Source: a phage
Assembly (NCBI GenBank): GCA_028524385.1
Contig: GCA_028524385.1_3661.2
Length of the DNA stretch: 52,202 bases
Reading direction: 5' to 3' (one strand)
Part shown: positions 12,732 to 49,701 of the stretch, piece by piece
Layout of the letters: each line of letters begins with the position of its first letter
Position numbering within the stretch: position 1 is the first letter of the stretch
The notes under the pieces: generated by a model
What the model saw: the letters and a program-made list of their open reading frames with translations, nothing else
What the model was told of the DNA's origin: nothing
Database searches by the model: none
Translations under genes and position numbers: made by a program

Positions 12732-13775
12732 TTATTTAACGTGTTTGAAAATACCTGCCAACTCGGTCATTGTCATGCGGGTGGTCTTCATAAGATCTGT
12801 CATAGCTTTCTCCATAATTGGAGATACTACCATAAAGTTTCCTTTAGTGAAACCTTTATTCCAGTCGGTCACCAACAGTGGTTTAAGTCCAGCTCCAAGA
12901 CGTTCACCAGTTAAAGCACAGCATTTGCGAATATACGAACTCTTAAATTGGCTGAACGACAGATCAACTTTCATACCTACATCGTAGAACGTTTGACAAT
13001 AGAAAGTGTAAGCTTTGGCAATCTCAACATCATCAGGTAGTGCAGGAACCTCTTCTGTAAGCTCCTCTTCGACCTCCTGAGTCTCTTTTTCCTCTTCATG
13101 CACCTGTTGCGTCATTTCTTCAATCTCTTCTGTGATAGGCTCGTTTACAATGTCGGAAATGTGCTTCTTGGGTGCACGATAAGTAACTTTAGACATCGGT
13201 AGCATATCTTCCTCCTCTTCTTCGTCAAAGAGTGCTAGTTTATCCTCTTCCGTTCCATATTGCAAGATGAAATCTTCAAAAGTATAATCACCTTTCAATT
13301 TCTCCATACGCTCTTCGCTCAGGTGGAGCATCATCTGCTGGACAATTTTTCGATCAGTTTCGTCTTTAATCAAGACTGCAGTCTTTTTATCTACCAGACA
13401 GTCCTTTAGAGAGTTGCATCTCAATCCCACCACACAACAGTTATCAACCGCATAAGGACCTTCATCATCTATCCGCTCCAGAGATGGGTAGAAAGGATTT
13501 CCCAGCCCGTTTTCATCTGTGTGCATGTCAAAAGGTATAAGGGTATAGTCGCATACTCCATCTCCTAAAAGTTTTTTACCAAATAGGAGGTATTCTTCCC
13601 ATGACAGGTCGAACTCTATATCTCGTTTCCGTGCATTATTCTGTTTGCGTCTATATTTTTTGAGCAAGCGCTCTAACTCTTCTGGTGTATAATATTTTTC
13701 AAGATTCATGAGTCGTCTCTCGTGCTCTGTAAGTGAAGAAATCGTATCAATTGTCTCAACAGATGTCAACATCAA
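12732..13775 (-). CDS. HNH-endonuclease-like protein fused to an unrelated C-terminal segment
   Basis: N-terminal ...ARKRDIEFDLSWEEY...CDYT...SLERIDDEGPYAVDNCCVVGLRCNSLK resembles HNH-type homing endonucleases; internal MSKVTYRA at residue 194 is encoded by a 29-bp sequence repeated inverted at 15035. Confidence 0.45.
   Translation of the reverse strand: MMLTSVETIDTISSLTEHERRLMNLEKYYTPEELERLLKKYRRKQNNARKRDIEFDLSWEEYLLFGKKLLGDGVCDYTLIPFDMHTDENGLGNPFYPSLERIDDEGPYAVDNCCVVGLRCNSLKDCLVDKKTAVLIKDETDRKIVQQMMLHLSEERMEKLKGDYTFEDFILQYGTEEDKLALFDEEEEEDMLPMSKVTYRAPKKHISDIVNEPITEEIEEMTQQVHEEEKETQEVEEELTEEVPALPDDVEIAKAYTFYCQTFYDVGMKVDLSFSQFKSSYIRKCCALTGERLGAGLKPLLVTDWNKGFTKGNFMVVSPIMEKAMTDLMKTTRMTMTELAGIFKHVK
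13173..13201. repeat. 29-bp perfect inverted repeat, left copy
   Basis: tgcacgataagtaactttagacatcggta is the exact reverse complement of 15035..15063. Confidence 0.8.
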
Positions 13776-15034: not shown

Positions 15035-15063
15035 TACCGATGTCTAAAGTTACTTATCGTGCA
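15035..15063. repeat. 29-bp perfect inverted repeat, right copy
   Basis: taccgatgtctaaagttacttatcgtgca; covers start codon and first 8 codons (MSKVTYRA) of gene 15040..15396. Confidence 0.8.
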
Positions 15064-27573: not shown

Positions 27574-30500
27574 ATGAGCATGTGGTCTTTCGATTTTGAG
27601 TCATCCGGTTTGCTGGAAGACCCAGATCTTTATTATCACTGCGGCCTGTTTAAAGAGCTGAATAAGAACCGTTTTATGCTGTTCCTTCCTCTAAATGACC
27701 GCACACACTACTCTGAAGAGGATATAGAGAAGGCTAAGAACTTTATTCTGGCAAAGAAAACTCTTTATAAAGATTTTGAAGTTCGCATAGCAGATTTTTC
27801 AGAGTTGGAAGGTTGGCTTACAGGAAATTCTGACTGGTCACCCACAGCTTTGAACTGCCACAACTGCTACAGCTACGACTTTATGCTGATGGAGAGATTG
27901 TCCGGTATTCATTTTGATATGTTCCGTGACCCTAAGTGTATGGGGACTATCAACGACCACCAGGTTAATCTGTTTGATACGTTGGCGATGAGCCGAATCT
28001 TGTGGCCTGATCGCCCTTTACCAAAAGGTTGTCCGGACTCTGTATTCAACCCGGTTACTAAGAAAATGCAGCCTGTTGGTCCTCACGGCCTTATGGCATG
28101 GGGCTACGCCCTTGGTAACCAGAAAGTTCAAATTGATGACTGGCGCGATCTTCCGTTGTGGAAGTATGTGGATCGTGTATTCGAGGACGTTATCATCCAG
28201 GAGCTGCTCTGGAAAGAGCTGGTAGCGGAATCAAAAGGTGTATTCTACGGCAAATCTGACATGCAGAACTTTATGTACGATCCAGCCAAAGAGAAGCCGA
28301 AAGGGTTCAAGAAGATCACCTGGAAGAACGCACTACGTCGAGGCATGCTGCAGCACTTCCTGATGGAGCTGCAGGCCCGTCAGGGTGTATACTTCGACAT
28401 AGATGGAGCTATTGCTTTACGTGACCGTTGCGATGCGTGGATGAAAGAAATCGCTGATCGTGTTGAACCACAACTACCTTTAAAAGAGCTGTCAATGTCT
28501 CAGCGGCCCAAGTTCCCTGAAAAGCCGTTTAACCAAGACGGGACAATCTCTAATAATGGTTGGAAATGGTTAAAAGATAAGCTTGGCTATCCTGTAGACA
28601 TGAGCGCTTTAGATTTCAAAGCCCCGCCTAAGCGAGCATTTACCTCTACAGGAGATGTCAGCAAGATGGGGATAAAATGGTGTGAAGAGATGGGCTGCAA
28701 AGACCCCGATAAGATGGCTGATTTCTTGAGAGGCTATATTAAGGGCACTTCCACACCTCACCCTTTGCCTAAAGAGCTGATGGATCAGGCAATAAGTGAT
28801 CTACAGCAGAAGCGAATGCCGGACTGCAAGATACCTATGAAAATCAGCAATCAGGACGACATTAAGCGGTATCTGATCAGTGCTGGCTGGCTACCGACAA
28901 TGTGGAGAACTAAGGATGTAACTAAAGATAGCAAGAAGAAAGCTCTACCTGATGCGGATGTTGATGCACGAGTATATGCATATATGGACGAGCTTTTAGA
29001 GTCAGAGTATTGTGACCTGATTATCAACTTCTGGAACAAAACTGATGCCAAGTTCCAGACAACTGTGCACAAGTTCCGAAGCTTTCCTAACTCTGAAAGG
29101 ATTAAAAAGGAAGTATTCGGGAAAATACGTAGAAAAGCCAGAGCACTTATTACTTCTCCGCAACTGAAAGATACGTTTGGACACCTGTGTCCGAATCTTG
29201 AAAAATTGAACGGAGAGATGGCTAAAGATATCGTCTTGTGGTTATCATTGCGAAACCGCAGATCAGTCCTTGATCCAATCAAGGAGGATAAGGTTGATAC
29301 TGGTCTTCTTAATCACCCACGTTTGAAGATTGACCATAAGCTTCCTGCTAAAAGCTCTGGATTAACAAACACTTCCAGACAGAAACACAGTATTTGTGCA
29401 AACATGCCTAAACCATCCCCTAAAGTGGTTATGGGTAAAGAGATGCGCAGTCTGTGGGGTGTTCCTCCTGGATACTTTCAGATCGGTATTGACGGGTCCA
29501 ACTTAGAGCAGCTTATCGGGGCTTGGGGTGCCTTTGAGTTCGACAACGGCCTGTATTACGATGTTGTAAGTAACGGCGATGCACATTGTTATTCAGGAGA
29601 TACACAAATTCTCACGGAGAAAGGGTGGGTGAGGTTTGAAGATCTTGATCCGGGAACACAAGTGTTCCAGTACGATCACAACACCTCGTCAATGAACCTT
29701 GTTACTCCATTAAATTACGTTAAGCGTAGTTATTATGGAGATATGTATCATTTCCACAACAGTAGTGTGGATTTTATGGTTACAGATCAACACAGGATGC
29801 TGACTGTGGATCACAGAAGCAATAAATTGTTTGAAGATTTGGCAAAAGACCTGAAAGCAGGTAAAGGGTCTAATTCAGGAAGAAGGTTTATCCATGCGGC
29901 AGAGTTTTATGGGAATACAGCCTTATCTCCTGCCCAGGTTAATTTGCTTATTGCTATTCACGATGATGGGCACTTGCATACAAATAAGGACGGCAGCATC
30001 GTGTGCAGGATTCAGGTCGGAAAGGGAAGAAAAGTTGCAACGCTTTTAGATACTTTTTCTGCTCTAAGCCTTAGTTATGTAGAGCAGAGCGGGAAAACCA
30101 CAAAAGGAGGCTTACTGGCGAGAAGGTTCCAATTCCACGTTCCGTCTTGGGTATTTGAGTTTTTGGACAGCAATAAGGATTTCACCTACAACCTGATGAA
30201 CCTTGATAAAGAATCTAAAAACCTGTTTATAGCTTCTTTATCTAACTGGGACGGGTGGGTATCTTCAGAAGGTGGAAAGGTTGCTTACTACTCCCAGGCC
30301 GAGTGTAGGAAGAAATCTGTAGAGGTGGTGTCTGCGCTGGCTACTCAGTGTGGTTTACGGAATAATACGGTGGCGATTCACAAAAAAGGTCGTGCCGTGC
30401 AGCACAGAATCACAATTGGTAGCAAACAGAGAGCAGGGTTGCTGACACTATCTAAAGAGTCTGTCGAGGTGAGCGGTTCTTTGGTTTATTGCGTTACCGT

Positions 30501-30966
30501 CCCTTCTGGAGCAATCATTGTGAGAAGGAATGGTAAAGTGGCAGTGTGCGGTAACTGTAATAACGCCAAAGCTTACTCTTCTGTAGCAGGCAAGGAGATT
30601 TCCCGTAACGATGGTAAGCCTATCACGTATGGGGTTATGTACGGGGCACAAAAAGATAAAGTTGCAGATATGCTGGACATCTCTCCAGAGTTGGGACAAA
30701 GGGTAATCGATGCACTCTGGGATGCCAACCCTGGTCTCAAGGGGCGCAAAGAGGATCTGGAGAAATTCTGGGAAGCAACTGGTAAGAAGTTTATCTACTC
30801 TTTTGATGGTCATGCTATCTGGACCAGATCTAAACACTCTTTACTTAATGCATACCAACAGAATGGTGGTGCATCGCTGTGTGACTTAGTTGGGATACTT
30901 ATGCACCACCAAATGGTGAAGCGTGGGTGGTACGATGAAGGTGTTCGTCGTATTATTTATTACCAT
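27574..30966 (+). CDS. family A DNA polymerase (T7 gp5-like), exon 1, containing an intein
   Basis: Exo I FDFE, HCG and HGLMAWGYALG as in T7 gp5 exonuclease domain; motif A IDGSNLEQL...NGDAH; motif B-like GKPITYGVMYG after intein; track ORF continues 2 codons into the intron to stop at 30972. Confidence 0.75.
29587..30555 (+). mobile_element. intein (323 aa) with LAGLIDADG-type homing endonuclease domain
   Basis: Inserted after extein ...SNGDAH; starts CYSGDTQILTEKGWVRFEDL; two LAGLIDADG-like motifs (LLIAIHDDGH, LFIASLSNWDGW); ends VYCVTV...VAVCGN followed by +1 Cys; flanks align to T7 gp5 NGDIH|TKNQ...RDNAKTFIYGFLYG. Confidence 0.65.
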
Positions 30967-31242
30967 AAATAACATTGTGGCTTCATAGAGTAATCTATGT
31001 CGAATAACCTCTTTAACTGCGGGAAGCCTAAACCTTATGGCAAGGTAATCCGCAACGAAGCGCTCAAAAGAGCGAACGCTCAGAGGCCATTCCGAAAGGA
31101 AGTAGACCAGCAAGTGCGGTCGAAATGGGAGGATTCCTGTGGTTGCTTATCATAGGAATATGAGATGGTCCGATCCTACGTGAAAACGTATGGCTATGCA
31201 CGTAATGGTGCGGGGTAGCTTAACGACCTACCTGAACTATTG
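30967..31242 (+). ncRNA. group I self-splicing intron (ORF-less) in DNA polymerase gene
   Basis: 276 nt between exon U30966 and terminal intron G31242; P/Q/R/S core elements aactgcgggaag, aatccgcaacg, cagaggcca, gagatggtcc; IGS gugg can pair with exon end ccau. Confidence 0.65.
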
Positions 31243-39554: not shown

Positions 39555-39865
39555 TATTTTAAGTTATCAGGTTGCCAGAGATCAGGAGGATTTCTAAAAT
39601 GGATTTCCTCCTTTTGATATTTTACCTGCCATGATATTTTAAAATCCTTAGAAAATCAGAAAATGGATCGAAAACTAAAATGGATTTTTCAGAGTAGGCG
39701 CGACAAGCTGAATCACTCATCCTATCGTTTGCACCATATTCCAGACCACCATTACAGATTTCCCGCACATGCTTACATCTCGCTACTAGAACTTCCTCCA
39801 CTCACCCTTGACCTTTTATAGCAATAATCCAACCACTATCTTGAAGTTGCGGTGCAGCTTTCCAG

Positions 39866-39887
39866 GTACTCGATCTGTTTTTCGTTT
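39866..39887. repeat. 22-bp direct repeat, copy 1
   Basis: gtactcgatctgtttttcgttt repeated exactly at 39931..39952. Confidence 0.75.
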
Positions 39888-39930
39888 CAAATATTGAATT
39901 TTCTGAAAATTTTTCTCGATAAATTTCTCA

Positions 39931-39952
39931 GTACTCGATCTGTTTTTCGTTT
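39931..39952. repeat. 22-bp direct repeat, copy 2
   Basis: Exact copy of 39866..39887; surrounded by recurring aaaatggat and ttttctgRaaat words. Confidence 0.75.
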
Positions 39953-40188
39953 TCTGAATCGGATTTTCTGGAAATCGTTCCGGATCTCGACCTGAAATTT
40001 TTGGGGACGAAATCGATTTTTCGTTTTCAGAAATGGATTTTTAAAATTTGTATATGGAAATATTTTAGGAGGTATTATTTTATATAGAATTGTCACGGTA
40101 GGTAATTAGCATGCTAACTAAATTTATGAAATGCGAAAAGTTCTCATTTAGAACTTTGAATGATAATCATTCTCGTTTGCAGAATAAC

Positions 40189-40230
40189 GGGCAGGCCCGG
40201 TGATTGTCTCCCGGCCCCTGTTGCCCCGGC
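40189..40230. repeat. GC-rich structured element E1
   Basis: gggcaggcccggtgattgtctccc... ; core ccggtgRttgtctccc shared with E2 and E3. Confidence 0.5.
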
Positions 40231-40328
40231 TTGTTATTATAGTATCACGCAGGACAAAGAAGGCAAGGATTTTTTGCATAAATTTTTAAATGATAATGAT
40301 AACCGTTCTCATTTTATGCATCGCCCAT

Positions 40329-40365
40329 CCCCGGTGGTTGTCTCCCCCGTCACCGGTGCCTGCCG
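40329..40365. repeat. GC-rich structured element E2
   Basis: ccccggtggttgtctcccccgtcaccggtgcctgccg; near-identical to reverse complement of E3 (49271..49322). Confidence 0.55.
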
Positions 40366-40443
40366 TCCTTTCGATAGGTATATTGTGCCACCTGGCGGGG
40401 TCGCTGTCAACACCTTTTCGAAAAAAAAAAATTATAACCAGGT

Positions 40444-40492
40444 GCGCCCACCGCCAGGACCTGGCGGCGGGGCCAACCTGGCAGGTCCGCGC
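40444..40492. repeat. GC-rich element E4 with 17-bp palindrome
   Basis: ccgccagg-a-cctggcgg perfect palindrome; CCTGGCGG word recurs at about 40391, 40653 and 49282. Confidence 0.45.
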
Positions 40493-40707
40493 TATAAAGT
40501 GAACAGCTGAAGAAGAGGTACATAAATGAAAGGTAATATTATCCACCTGGGGAAATATAGTAATTAATGGCACGTGAGCTATCCTCCCTGGTTGAGAGGG
40601 CTAAAACTGAAGCGTTGGAACATAAAGAAGAATACGAAAAAATGATGGTTAACCTGGCAGGGGCGGCGGCTGGAGAATTCTACCCAAAAAATAATTTTAC
40701 ATAATGG

Positions 40708-41051: not shown

Positions 41052-41450
41052 ATGAAAACTACAACCTTTAATTTTGATAATGCTGACTTCTCTTTTTCTG
41101 ATGTTAAGAACTGCCGCCGTGAGCGTGGATTCTACAAGGCTTATAATCTGGTTGGCCTAGACGATGATAATAATTTACACGAAGTAGCCGAGATCCGGTA
41201 TTATGCCGCCTCCAGCGGTAACACTCATTATTGCGTCTTTTGGATGCACGACAGCAAGAACAATAAGTACGGTTATACTGGTGGCAAGGCGAGCGGTCAC
41301 GGTTATGATAAGGCCAATGCAGCGCTTGAAAGCGCGTTAAATGCTATGGGGATCACTGCCAACGGCTGGATCTATGAAGATGAATTTTTGTCAGCACTTG
41401 CTGCCCACCTGGGGTATAAAAAGCACATTGTGACATGCGCCCACGAATAA
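41052..41450 (+). CDS. hypothetical protein
   Basis: 132-aa ORF with SD aagagga. Confidence 0.45.
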   Translation: MKTTTFNFDNADFSFSDVKNCRRERGFYKAYNLVGLDDDNNLHEVAEIRYYAASSGNTHYCVFWMHDSKNNKYGYTGGKASGHGYDKANAALESALNAMGITANGWIYEDEFLSALAAHLGYKKHIVTCAHE

Positions 41451-41461
41451 AAAAAAAATTA

Positions 41462-41537: not shown

Positions 41538-41933
41538 ATGAATAAGAACGTACGCCGCATCATGAACGAACTGGCAAACGATGAAAAAATTATTGATATG
41601 CATTTGGTCAACATTTGCCGCCGTTGTGTAACATATAACAACCGCGCCGCAAAAGCGCGTGAGATGAACGCAAAAGGCACCTTAAAGCCCTTTCAGGTGG
41701 TTGTAAAATCTATAACTAATGCAGCAGGCCAGGCGCATGACCACAACAACGAGAGCACTAATATTGATCCGTCTTACGTAATGAAACGGATCCGGACTTG
41801 CAAGAATAAAGAGCAGGTGTATAACGTCATAGATTGGCTGGACTCCATGGGCGATGTGGTTTATAATAGGTTTTCTGCAGCTATCGAGATCCAGCTTGAC
41901 AGACTGGACGGGAAAGTACTGAAAACTTACTAA
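41538..41933 (+). CDS. hypothetical protein
   Basis: 131-aa ORF with SD aaaggaaaaag. Confidence 0.45.
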   Translation: MNKNVRRIMNELANDEKIIDMHLVNICRRCVTYNNRAAKAREMNAKGTLKPFQVVVKSITNAAGQAHDHNNESTNIDPSYVMKRIRTCKNKEQVYNVIDWLDSMGDVVYNRFSAAIEIQLDRLDGKVLKTY

Positions 41934-41980
41934 ATTTATTTTTAGATGGCCTTGACTCCAGGGCCATCAATAAAGTAAAC
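41934..41980. repeat. conserved 48-nt intergenic hairpin element, copy 1
   Basis: atttatttttaGATGGCCTTGactcCAGGGCCATCaataaagtaaac directly after stop codon; 10-bp stem, 4-nt loop, embedded TTGACT. Confidence 0.7.
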
Positions 41981-42013
41981 TAATCCTAGTTAAGCTAAAA
42001 AGGAGGCTTGAAG

Positions 42014-42211: not shown

Positions 42212-42553
42212 ATGACTACTATGACCGCCGCAGAAAAAGCCATGCAGATCGCCGCGCTGAAAAAACAGATCGCAGACCTTGAGAATAAGATCGATAACTT
42301 TGAAATCGACGAGGACAAGTACGACGAAAACTATGATGAATGGTTAGACGAGATCTACGGCGAAATTATGATCGGAAACATTTCTTTTCTTCCATCGCGT
42401 ATCCTCAAGGAGCTAGATCCTATCGCTTACCGCTGCGGATTTAGCGACTACATCGACAGCCTGGATATTGAGGACGATGAAGAATACCAGGAATTGCAGA
42501 CAGAGCTTGAGGAAGTGAAAGAAGAGCTTTCAGAACTGGAAGAAAACGAATAA
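42212..42553 (+). CDS. acidic hypothetical protein
   Basis: 113-aa ORF with SD aaaggag; very acidic C-terminal half. Confidence 0.45.
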   Translation: MTTMTAAEKAMQIAALKKQIADLENKIDNFEIDEDKYDENYDEWLDEIYGEIMIGNISFLPSRILKELDPIAYRCGFSDYIDSLDIEDDEEYQELQTELEEVKEELSELEENE

Positions 42554-42600
42554 ATTTATTTTTAGATGGCCTTGACTCCAGGGCCATCAATAAAGTAAAC
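42554..42600. repeat. conserved 48-nt intergenic hairpin element, copy 2
   Basis: Identical to copy 1, again starting right after a stop codon. Confidence 0.7.
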
Positions 42601-42639
42601 TTTACACTGTTAACACTGAACTAATGAGGAGTTAAAACC

Positions 42640-42885
42640 ATGGCAGCACTAATTACCAAATACTATGCGCCCACCAACACCAAAAGCGCCCGGATCATGG
42701 TAAAAGGCTTCGGACGTAAAAAGGTTTACACCTGGGATTATTCCCTAGACATGGAAGACAACTACACCAACGCGATGACCGATTTTATTAACGAGCTGAA
42801 TACGCGGATCTTAACAAATTATAAAATTACCGACATTGCTTATATAGGTGAAGGCGGGATCTGTTTTGTAGGCATTGTGAAATAG
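42640..42885 (+). CDS. hypothetical protein
   Basis: 81-aa ORF with SD gaggag. Confidence 0.45.
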   Translation: MAALITKYYAPTNTKSARIMVKGFGRKKVYTWDYSLDMEDNYTNAMTDFINELNTRILTNYKITDIAYIGEGGICFVGIVK

Positions 42886-42886
42886 T

Positions 42887-42936
42887 TATTTTTTCGGTGG
42901 TCCTGGCTGCAGGGCCATCTATAAAGATAATTTACT
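42887..42936. repeat. variant copy of intergenic hairpin element
   Basis: ttattttttcGGTGGTCCTGgctgCAGGGCCATCtataaag; 5' arm differs from canonical copies but still pairs with the identical 3' arm (G-U wobbles); -35-like TTGACT lost. Confidence 0.55.
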
Positions 42937-46068: not shown

Positions 46069-46269
46069 ATGAGCAAGAATATTCGCGTTATCAATTTTAA
46101 AAAAGATGAAAAACTGGCTGTTCTGGTCGATGGTCAAGAAATCTTCAAGGGCGATTATGAAGATCATCAAACGGCGATTAGTATCACTCGCGTGATTGGT
46201 TACCATAATTTTTACCCCCAAGGCGCTGAGGCAGCGGTTAAACGAATCAAAGAGATTGTAGGCCTGTAA
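46069..46269 (+). CDS. hypothetical protein
   Basis: 66-aa ORF with SD gaggag, preceded by TATGGATAAT promoter-like box and 5' hairpin. Confidence 0.45.
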   Translation: MSKNIRVINFKKDEKLAVLVDGQEIFKGDYEDHQTAISITRVIGYHNFYPQGAEAAVKRIKEIVGL

Positions 46270-46317
46270 AATTTATTTTTAGATGGCCTTGACTCCAGGG
46301 CCATCAATAAAGTAAAT
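46270..46317. repeat. conserved 48-nt intergenic hairpin element, copy 3
   Basis: Identical core to copies at 41934 and 42554, again directly after a stop codon. Confidence 0.7.
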
Positions 46318-46362
46318 TTAAACCCTGTTAAAATACCACGCAGTTAACAAGGAGTGATAGAC

Positions 46363-49021: not shown

Positions 49022-49213
49022 ATGAATACTGAACAAGTCAGAAAGGTATTAGCAGTACTGCGTTATCATAATCATAGAAAGGTGATAGACGATCCTGATT
49101 ATGTAGATTCAAGCCTAGAAGAGGATACACTACAAGCCATAAGTAACATGCAAGAATTGCTAAAGCGCATGACAGAGAAAAACCGACCTGACTACATAGG
49201 CGAAAAAATATAA
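49022..49213 (+). CDS. hypothetical protein
   Basis: 63-aa ORF. Confidence 0.4.
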   Translation: MNTEQVRKVLAVLRYHNHRKVIDDPDYVDSSLEEDTLQAISNMQELLKRMTEKNRPDYIGEKI

Positions 49214-49227
49214 GATTTATAAACTAC

Positions 49228-49258
49228 AAAACAGGGCTTGCAATGGTCCTGTTTTTTG
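49228..49258 (+). terminator. intrinsic terminator
   Basis: acagggc-ttgcaatg-gtcctgt followed by tttttt. Confidence 0.65.
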
Positions 49259-49270
49259 TTATACTTGTTT

Positions 49271-49322
49271 CACGGCAGGCACCTGGCGACGGGGGGGGGG
49301 AGACAACCACCGGGCCTGCCTG
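49271..49322. repeat. GC-rich structured element E3 with G10 homopolymer
   Basis: cacggcaggcacctggcgac-G10-agacaaccaccgggcctgcctg; reverse complement matches E1/E2 cores; G10 at 49291-49300. Confidence 0.55.
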
Positions 49323-49345
49323 TCATATAAGAACTATAAAAACCG

Positions 49346-49374
49346 TTGACATCTGCCATGGGGTGGGGTAACAT
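49346..49374 (+). promoter_or_regulatory. sigma70-type promoter
   Basis: TTGACA-17 nt-TAACAT. Confidence 0.45.
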
Positions 49375-49428: not shown

Positions 49429-49701
49429 ATGTCAAGCTGGATTAATCAAGAAGTCGAATCACGTTTCAATGCTATTTGGGATCTCATCGAAAAAGAAGAC
49501 GGCACATCAAGCCCTTACCTCAATAATCTGGAATTTCATTTCGTGGAAGCAATGAACGCAGAATACAACCACAAAGGCGGTGCTGATGAGTTCGCCAGGG
49601 GATACGGATTCGATAACGCCAACCAAATGATCGAGGCGGTTGTTCTCCAGGCTGAAGAAGATTATCAATTAAAAACACTTGAGTTTTGCCGCCGGAAGTA
49701 A
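49429..49701 (+). CDS. hypothetical protein
   Basis: 90-aa ORF with SD agagagga. Confidence 0.45.
   Translation: MSSWINQEVESRFNAIWDLIEKEDGTSSPYLNNLEFHFVEAMNAEYNHKGGADEFARGYGFDNANQMIEAVVLQAEEDYQLKTLEFCRRK

Follow-up and report, generated by a model that had tools for sequence, protein, structure and literature searches.

What is the GC-rich element with a run of ten G residues that stands between a terminator and a promoter in the early region of this phage, and does the length of the run matter? The sequence analysed as a whole, hereafter the window, is a stretch of 52,202 nucleotides and comes from an rV5-like coliphage (Vequintavirus). The 2.5 kb surrounding the element, named here E3, matched 244 phage records, the closest being Escherichia phage MiataMamis (95% identity), followed by many Vequintavirus phages at 87–91%. 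The rV5 early region occupies the window from ~38.4 kb to its end and consists of small genes with the + strand used throughout. The gene upstream of E3 ends in an intrinsic terminator of 11 pairs (0.3 expected in the terminator scan), which is kept in relatives; a G.T pair in its stem gives the better hairpin on the + strand. Downstream, P168 is the second of two tandem promoters before ORF 49429-49701. The placement of E3 between a terminator and a promoter, proposed in the first-pass annotation, was reproduced by both scans. The rV5 genome paper predicted promoters and terminators by consensus alone and mentioned a "non-coding" box, and the literature searched contained nothing relevant on transcriptomes or small RNAs of rV5-like phages.

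Two other features of the window were recorded. A group I catalytic intron (RF00028) was found at 30957-31192 on the + strand at the Rfam gathering score (64.7 bits, full-length model), at and just past the end of the 1132-aa ORF 27574-30972. A perfect 29-nt inverted repeat (13173-13201 and 15035-15063, 1.8 kb apart) flanks the switch from − strand to + strand genes.

E3 has two relatives in the window, E1 and E2, located about 9 kb away and inverted with respect to it (Table 1). The 18-nt core GGCCCGGTGGTTGTCTCC occurs at 49299-49316 on the − strand without mismatches, and on the + strand at 40194-40211 with one mismatch and at 40328-40345 with two. Three matches were thus observed in the window against 0.01 expected by chance, and none of 100 shuffles gave three. 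E1 and E3 form a 42-nt inverted repeat with 83% complementarity, and E2 and E3 share a perfect 19-nt inverted repeat. The reverse complement of E3 reads ...ggttgtct-C10-gtcgcc. Its 3′ half, GTCGCCAGGTGCCTGCCGTG, resembles the 3′ half of E2, GTCACCGGTGCCTGCCGT, which has C5 where E3 has C10, so that E3 looks like a chimera of E1 and E2. The earlier description of E3 as an inverted, chimeric copy that joins the 5′ core of E1 to the 3′ half of E2 therefore holds. The homopolymer it reported is present as well, with the correction that the two C residues written before C10 belong to the ten; the run is 10 nt long, not 12.

Table 1. Features of the E3 locus and of the region carrying E1 and E2 (window coordinates).
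Feature	Position	Strand or orientation	Basis and remarks
Upstream gene	49022-49213	+	Ends in terminator 49228-49255
Intrinsic terminator hairpin	49228-49255	+	Terminator scan; U-run to 49257; TTGCAA in loop
Promoter P1 (predicted, unannotated)	49238-49265	+	Promoter scan, 9/12 plus TG; TTGCAA-16-TGtTATACT
E3	49271-49322 (as predicted leader 49272-49324)	+ in GGAGAC sense	Inverted relative to E1 and E2
E3 leader hairpin (predicted)	49274-49281 with 49317-49324	+	RNAfold; GGCAGGCA pairs with UGCCUGUC
G10 homopolymer	49291-49300	+	First Gs on the 5′ side of the apical stem, the rest in the loop
Invariant core GGAGACAACCACCGG	49299-49313	+	Shine-Dalgarno-like plus spacer, no start codon after
Promoter P168	49346-49374	+	Promoter scan; TTGACA-17-TAACAT; annotated in rV5 (DQ832317)
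ORF 49429-49701	49429-49701	+	90 aa, rV5 ORF167 homologue; first gene 3′ of E3
Fur-box-like palindrome AATGATAATCATTCTCG	40159-40175	n/a	Upstream of E1 on the + strand, between TTGAAT (40156) and CAGAAT (40180)
E1	40184-40225, core 40197-40211	Opposite to E3	Core search, repeat search
Second Fur-box-like site GATAATGATAACCGTTCTC	40292-40310	+	Upstream of E2
E2	40328-40365, core 40331-40345	Opposite to E3	Core search, repeat search

In the sense in which the core reads GGAGAC, the G-run stands 5′ of the invariant core GGAGACAAYCACCGG, and the pattern conserved across phage families is the G-run, GGAGACAAYCACCG and (N)CCTGC. Read in the same sense, which for E1 and E2 is the − strand, a perfect TATAAT (40241-40236) precedes E1, and a promoter, TTGACA(40410)-17-TGgCACAAT(40382), precedes E2. 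Both copies are oriented against the flow of the surrounding genes. The idea that the 9 kb separating E1 from E3 had inverted was considered and rejected: the relative orientation of the two was constant in the records where both were compared.

E1 and E2 are located in a conserved non-coding hub of ~700 bp (39.85-40.53 kb), together with repeats on either side. Just left of E1, at 39856-40041, there are three direct repeats of ~65 nt containing TCGATCTGTTTTTCGTTT, and a similar TCGATCG-containing sequence was found at the equivalent position in other genera. GC-rich CCTGGCGG repeats occupy 40386-40500. This hub possibly corresponds to the "non-coding" box mentioned in the rV5 paper, and it is a possible candidate for an origin of replication.

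The comparison with related genomes that had been recommended earlier showed that about 116 Vequintavirus records have E3 at the equivalent site. The terminator and E3 are also kept together in Phapecoctavirus and in an Enterobacter phage, and the core with its G-run occurs in other genera of Vequintavirinae. The segment containing E1 and its upstream sequence (40119-40237) has 73–88% identity in Certrevirus, Seunavirus, Mydovirus, a Serratia phage and Phapecoctavirus. When IMG/VR and JGI metagenomes were scanned for the pattern, this core was also found in an uncultivated, unrelated phage family with contigs of 42–47 kb, one of which has 7 distinct copies and another 11. No protein was common to ~91 kb of loci from this family and the 52-kb window, which is itself a part of a phage genome. 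The family encodes a DUF932 protein, an HNH/NUMOD4 endonuclease and a NinX-like protein (contig loci 7654-8784, 8835-9341 and 1507-1986).

Outside these phages the searches returned little. The element had no match in 5,426 E. coli genomes, and an origin from host sequence was rejected. A scan of 185,579 species genomes with the 18-mer gave 10 scattered matches in unrelated taxa, approximately the number we estimate for chance; the IMG/VR scan with a 15-mer gave mostly chance matches plus one prophage gene; and a scan with a Fur-like 16-mer gave no new relatives of the element among the matches listed. No gathering-score match in Rfam 15 was obtained for E1, E2, E3 or their homologues, only chance-level ones (E-value up to 5). 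No remnant of a tRNA or tmRNA was found.

The other genera contain, in addition, a second, diverged core-like element, CCGGCGATCCACCTTCC, preceded by TTTACAAATCTTTACAAAT (at ~680–760 of the compared segments), for which the window has no counterpart. After it comes a strongly conserved hairpin, GCCCCGC-CUUUUCGCC-GUGGGGU, which contains two G.U pairs and has a tail rich in U. The hairpin is a candidate structured RNA on that strand, and it has no Rfam match.

E3 does not appear to be part of a gene. The equivalent of ORF 49243-49371 (+) is annotated in MiataMamis as AEHOZMTZ_CDS0090, whose start lies in the terminator loop and whose frame is not kept between relatives, owing to the different lengths of the G-run. 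Since the run lengths differ by non-multiples of three and the 42-aa ORF that overlaps E3 has its start in the terminator, E3 is not coding, and AEHOZMTZ_CDS0090 is very likely not a gene. ORF 40160-40510 over E1 and E2 has probably a counterpart in ORF 198 of rV5, according to our own mapping of coordinates from a BLAST alignment; ORF 198 itself is doubtful as a gene. Protein coding was rejected for both ORFs, which are not conserved in frame and run through homopolymers.

The arrangement of E3 becomes clearer from a second promoter-like site found by the promoter scan. This predicted promoter, P1, is annotated in no record; its −35 box (TTGCAA, 49238-49243) lies inside the terminator loop and its extended −10 box (TGtTATACT, 49257-49265) follows, and the predicted start, about A49272, is the first base of the element. 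The earlier picture of a flanking promoter was right about P168, but it missed the predicted P1 start at the element as well as the wide conservation. In the A147 clade the hairpin has another sequence and the same geometry, with TTGACT-17-TGcTATTCT; that the geometry is kept despite the replacement of the hairpin argues that the promoter is under selection.

The same order was observed for the other copies, namely E1, E2 and E3 in rV5-like phages, the copies in other genera and Phapecoctavirus, and more than 20 metagenomic copies. In the GGAGAC sense, a strong −10 box stands 22–36 nt upstream of almost every copy examined; it reads TATAAT, TATACT or TATTAT, in many cases with an extended TGn. 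Directly before these boxes there is a terminator hairpin with TTGCAA, TTGACT or TTCAAA in its loop, at −35 distance. In the opposite sense, the −10 boxes are weaker even in the best cases, and their spacing is irregular. Three copies in the metagenomic family are stand-alone units of promoter, element and terminator; behind the others come a second promoter and a gene, which is also the order of E3, P168 and ORF 49429.

Composite cassettes of this kind, in which a terminator is combined with a promoter, are known from T4-like phages as PeSLs (PMC2839356, PMC4122927). As in PeSLs, a stem-loop terminator is fused to a sigma-70-type early promoter, among small early genes, and this was found at E3, in its relatives and in the more than 20 metagenomic copies. 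The unit recurs in the genome, though with only three element-bearing copies in each rV5-like phage, against 7–11 per contig in the metagenomic family. Furthermore, like PeSLs, the E3 cassette is located at boundaries of gene replacement or indels between close relatives: in rV5_ev146 everything to the left of ...AATCACCGG is missing, with the breakpoint inside the core, and in the A147/LL12/phita32 clade the left half is foreign and another gene stands upstream. Breakpoints inside the element, in rV5_ev146, in the A147 clade and in the chimeric structure of E3, fit the module-shuffling role described for PeSLs.

Unlike PeSLs, which have been defined by their promoter and stem-loop, the cassettes described here conserve a further ~45 nt after the −10 box with an invariant 15-nt core. 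This extra segment is common to unrelated phage families, and of its three copies per rV5-like genome two are directed against the genes. The window also has a family of 51-nt repeats between early genes (41931-41981, 42551-42601, 42882-42932 and 46268-46318). Each is a hairpin, GATGGCC-TTGACTCCA-GGGCCATC, with the −35 box TTGACT in its loop, followed by TAAACT. These repeats are classical PeSL-like terminator/promoter cassettes, and the four of them carry no element of the E1/E2/E3 type.

Based on the above results, that E3 is the conserved leader of a PeSL-like cassette is the best-supported statement, one about architecture. For the mechanism, we tentatively suggest that E3 is transcribed and acts at the RNA level, a role which we infer and hold at somewhat short of an even chance. 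With a −35-like TTGCAA in the terminator loop and TGtTATACT after the U-run, a start by host sigma-70 RNA polymerase would be expected at about A49272. The P1 transcript would read through E3 and P168 into ORF 49429-49701, placing E3 at the 5′ end of the mRNA of this gene when it is made from P1. The first ~50 nt of this RNA would be the element, the G-run followed by GGAGACAAYCACCGG, to which the flanking arms would add a 5′-terminal stem-loop in rV5-like phages. Such a hairpin, two nucleotides from the 5′ end, would display a start-less Shine-Dalgarno-like sequence in its apical loop, with the G-run as the 5′ strand of the apical stem. The module may serve to stabilise P1 transcripts or to mark them, or it may be a docking site for a ribosome or a regulatory factor. 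Since the same ~40-bp sequence recurs in the genome, it may also act as a recombination junction between gene modules. A point against this RNA model is that E1 and E2, directed against the surrounding genes, would yield non-coding antisense transcripts.

The predicted fold agrees with such a leader in some respects. Besides the outer stem (Table 1), RNAfold gave inner stems GGC/GCC and C-GGGG/CC-A-CC-G for the + strand RNA; the first Gs of the run pair with CC-A-CC, and the other Gs with AGACAA make up the loop. The energy of the hairpin is −27.6 to −28.6 kcal/mol, and with a transcript beginning at A49272 only two nucleotides before the stem would be unpaired. The + strand was favoured in the z score (−2.33 vs −1.32 for the − strand) and in the alifold energy (−7.8 vs −2.2 kcal/mol), and the basal G.U pair of the stem is A.C on the other strand. 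As an intrinsic terminator E3 would lack the U-run: UCAUAUAAGAAC follows the hairpin on the + strand and GAAACAAG on the − strand.

However, the long hairpin as a feature conserved in all copies was rejected, the alifold energies being weak and the metagenomic family having no arms. Covariation was scarce in RNAalifold, with double changes in 2 of 12 pairs and a covariation term of −1 kcal/mol. The outer stem is absent in the metagenomic family, and a 2×2 mismatch interrupts it in the A147 clade, a clade nevertheless represented by many isolates. Conservation therefore concerns the sequence rather than the fold, and a protein-binding DNA site fits equally well. It should be noted that the core resembles ribosome-binding regions of the phages themselves (AGGAGAAAACACC-ATG at 42212, AGAGGAAAACACC-ATG at 49429 and GGAGTAATCACC-ATG in the metagenomic family), a likeness that is moderate only, CACC before ATG being found in 3–4 of 69 window genes and 6 of 70 genes of the metagenomic family.

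Several leader elements provide a comparison. The ompA leader of E. coli stabilises its mRNA by a 5′-terminal stem-loop, and the STAB-SD of cryIIIA in Bacillus is a Shine-Dalgarno-like stabiliser that works without translation. E3 resembles the former in its hairpin predicted 2 nt from the 5′ end and the latter in its strong Shine-Dalgarno-like GGAG far upstream of any start codon. The metagenomic family, by contrast, has no hairpin and keeps the Shine-Dalgarno-like core alone; a stabilising role of E3 is our proposal. The nut sites of lambda and P22 include a boxB hairpin with a GNRA-like pentaloop, which is GACAA in P22. Like them, E3 would be a leader RNA element shortly after an early promoter in a terminator-rich region, and a small apical hairpin can be drawn whose loop contains GACAA, with the variants GAUAA, GGUAA and GGCAA. 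Unlike nut sites, E3 lacks a boxA-like sequence and is not known to have an N-like protein as its partner; the loop-closing pair varies (A-U, A.C or A.A), and the stem of G-run and C(A)CC has a bulge.

A leader is not the only way to account for a conserved sequence at this position. As the main rival reading, the element may instead be a DNA operator, where a phage or host protein binds GGAGACAAYCACCGG 3′ of P1 and 5′ of P168, blocks one promoter or activates the other, and co-ordinates all promoters bearing the motif. We regard this as unlikely, though deserving real weight: the conservation concerns a 15-nt sequence and not a structure, the position relative to the −10 box is fixed, and the motif occurs at 7–11 promoters per contig in the metagenomic family, as in a regulon. 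Other repeats that look like protein sites are located nearby, such as Fur-like palindromes and direct repeats of TGTAAC-N5-TGTAA or TTTACAAATCTTTACAAAT. On the other hand, the motif lacks the symmetry of a palindrome, the ~91 kb of metagenomic-family loci have no protein in common with the part of the genome covered by the window, and the motif is absent from E. coli chromosomes. In a comparison by eye, it did not match the E. coli consensuses of CRP, IHF, DnaA, LexA, OmpR, sigma-54, sigma-E or sigma-32.

As for the run itself, G10 is the sole homopolymer of G or C longer than 6 in the window and was found in this genome only, among the sequences compared. The fetched sequences have G6 in rV5, navn, JES2013, phage 206, V18 and FV3, G5 in MiataMamis and the A147/LL12/phita32 clade, and G11 in slur16; two metagenomic relatives have AGGGGG or the interrupted GGGTGG. 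With a 71-nt query, the great majority of the best 60 BLAST rows had a match length of 67 nt (G6), only slur16 and slur12 had 72 nt, and none had 71; more than 85% of the full-length records listed have G6. The first-pass annotation had suggested that the length may vary between virions; it does differ between related genomes (G5, a G6 mode, GGGTGG, G11 in slur12 and slur16, and G10 here). Surplus Gs would merely enlarge the loop, so the run length would be weakly constrained. Based on these data, G10 is probably an expansion of the usual G6 by replication slippage and unlikely to be a switch.

Long G-runs are a weak point of several sequencing chemistries, and the true run could be about G6, with G10 as a homopolymer miscall of this assembly. 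G10 is indeed found in no other record, and the sole other long run is the G11 of slur12 and slur16. We nevertheless consider a miscall rather improbable: errors usually shorten long runs instead of lengthening G6 to G10, and the window has no sign of homopolymer noise. Its A11 (40421-40431) and A10 (41449-41458) are both intergenic, and the A11 is A6T5 in rV5, which is a matter of substitutions and not of length.

The inverted orientation of E1 and E2 relative to E3 raises another possibility, that of an antisense circuit. In this scheme, + strand RNAs of E1 and E2, made from promoters overlapped by Fur-box-like palindromes (e.g., at low iron), would pair with the E3 leader and alter the fate of the ORF 49429 mRNA. 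The predicted E1:E3 and E2:E3 duplexes have energies of −87 and −78 kcal/mol, compared with −39 and −44 kcal/mol for shuffles (sd about 5), but such complementarity follows automatically from an inverted repeat. The putative promoter before E1, TTGAAT-18-CAGAAT, encloses the palindrome, and by manual count 40156-40174 matches 15 of the 19 positions of the E. coli Fur consensus. The site before E2 matches GATAATGATAATCATTATC at 16 of 19 positions, the sole such match in the window (0.02 expected). By sequence, E1 and E2 thus have close 19-bp matches that overlap putative promoters. The palindrome (consensus AAATGAGAATCATTCTCATTT) recurs in 1–4 tandem copies beside the element in five other groups, Certrevirus, Seunavirus, Mydovirus, a Serratia phage and Phapecoctavirus (at ~470–560 of the compared segments), and beside E3 itself in Enterobacter phage SS-2025. 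In addition, the 13-mers GAGAATCATTCTC and GAGAATGATTCTC occur in a paper on the Fur regulon of Enterococcus faecalis and in one on TonB-dependent receptors of Xanthomonas. These palindromes suggest, as far as sequence goes, that iron or Fur may exert control in strictly lytic phages. The antisense circuit itself is nonetheless improbable in our judgement, given that the + strand promoters are weak (CAGAAT at E1, no clear −10 box at E2), that the opposing − strand promoters are stronger, and that almost all metagenomic-family copies are oriented in a single way with respect to their genes.

A broader version would make the motif a new class of leader RNA, a start-less mimic of a ribosome-binding site on terminator-embedded promoters. 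Recognition by a conserved component of the host (the 30S subunit, RNA polymerase or an RNase) would then make the transcript stable or resistant to termination, with the inverted copies behind Fur-box promoters supplying antisense RNA. We give this extended scheme only a slim chance.

Two further RNA readings were tried and rejected. The ToxI lead was tempting since phiTE, an rV5-like phage, carries a ToxI/pseudo-ToxI antitoxin RNA locus (PMC3475682). E3 and this locus are both non-coding loci in Vequintavirinae phages, and the minus-sense core GGUGAUUGUCUCC recalls the ToxI start AGGUGAUUUGCUACC, which was confirmed from a primer sequence. The identity amounts to 7 nt and is equalled by 11–15% of shuffles in four copies, and at E2 it is a 5-nt match equalled by 72% of shuffles. 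In contrast to type III antitoxin RNAs with their tandem ~36-nt repeats, the element occurs as single dispersed copies, and its locus differs from the escape locus of phiTE. A minus-strand small RNA running from E3 into the terminator failed as well: what looked like its "A-rich linker plus terminator" merely complements the + strand terminator and its U-run, its hairpin has an A.C mismatch, and there is no − strand U-run in the A147 and SS-2025 lineages.

The phase-variable switch proposed in the first-pass annotation, with a G-run that differs between virions and tunes P168 or the structure of the element, remains very improbable. Phase-variable homopolymer tracts are known as contingency loci, including poly-G tracts in genes of Campylobacter phages; E3 resembles them in its run of 10, long enough for replication slippage and the single long G or C run of the window, and in its length differences between isolates (G5, G6, G10 and G11). 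Unlike them, the run lies outside any reading frame and outside the spacers of both P1 (49244-49259) and P168 (49352-49368), at about +20 to +29 of the former and −90 to −81 of the latter, and the predicted fold is the same from G4 to G13 (−24.6 to −27.6 kcal/mol); a tuning of the adjacent promoter thus lacks a structural basis. The dominance of G6, with long runs only in this genome and in slur12 and slur16, is likewise unlike a contingency locus.

In summary, the element is a real, conserved and previously undescribed promoter-proximal motif, a variant of the terminator/promoter cassette theme. The message of the G-run is modest, namely an unusual expansion of a normally 6-nt run. The rV5-like and phAPEC8-like phages are broad-host-range coliphages in therapy collections, and their early regulation is essentially uncharacterised. 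The present analysis offers three leads: a testable regulatory motif common to distant phage families, a predicted and unannotated promoter nested in a terminator, and Fur-box-like candidate operators in a conserved non-coding hub. Action at the RNA level would make the motif a new phage leader element, whereas as an operator it would define a regulon. If the new leader RNA class with Fur-box antisense copies were true, early expression of a strictly lytic phage would respond to host iron.
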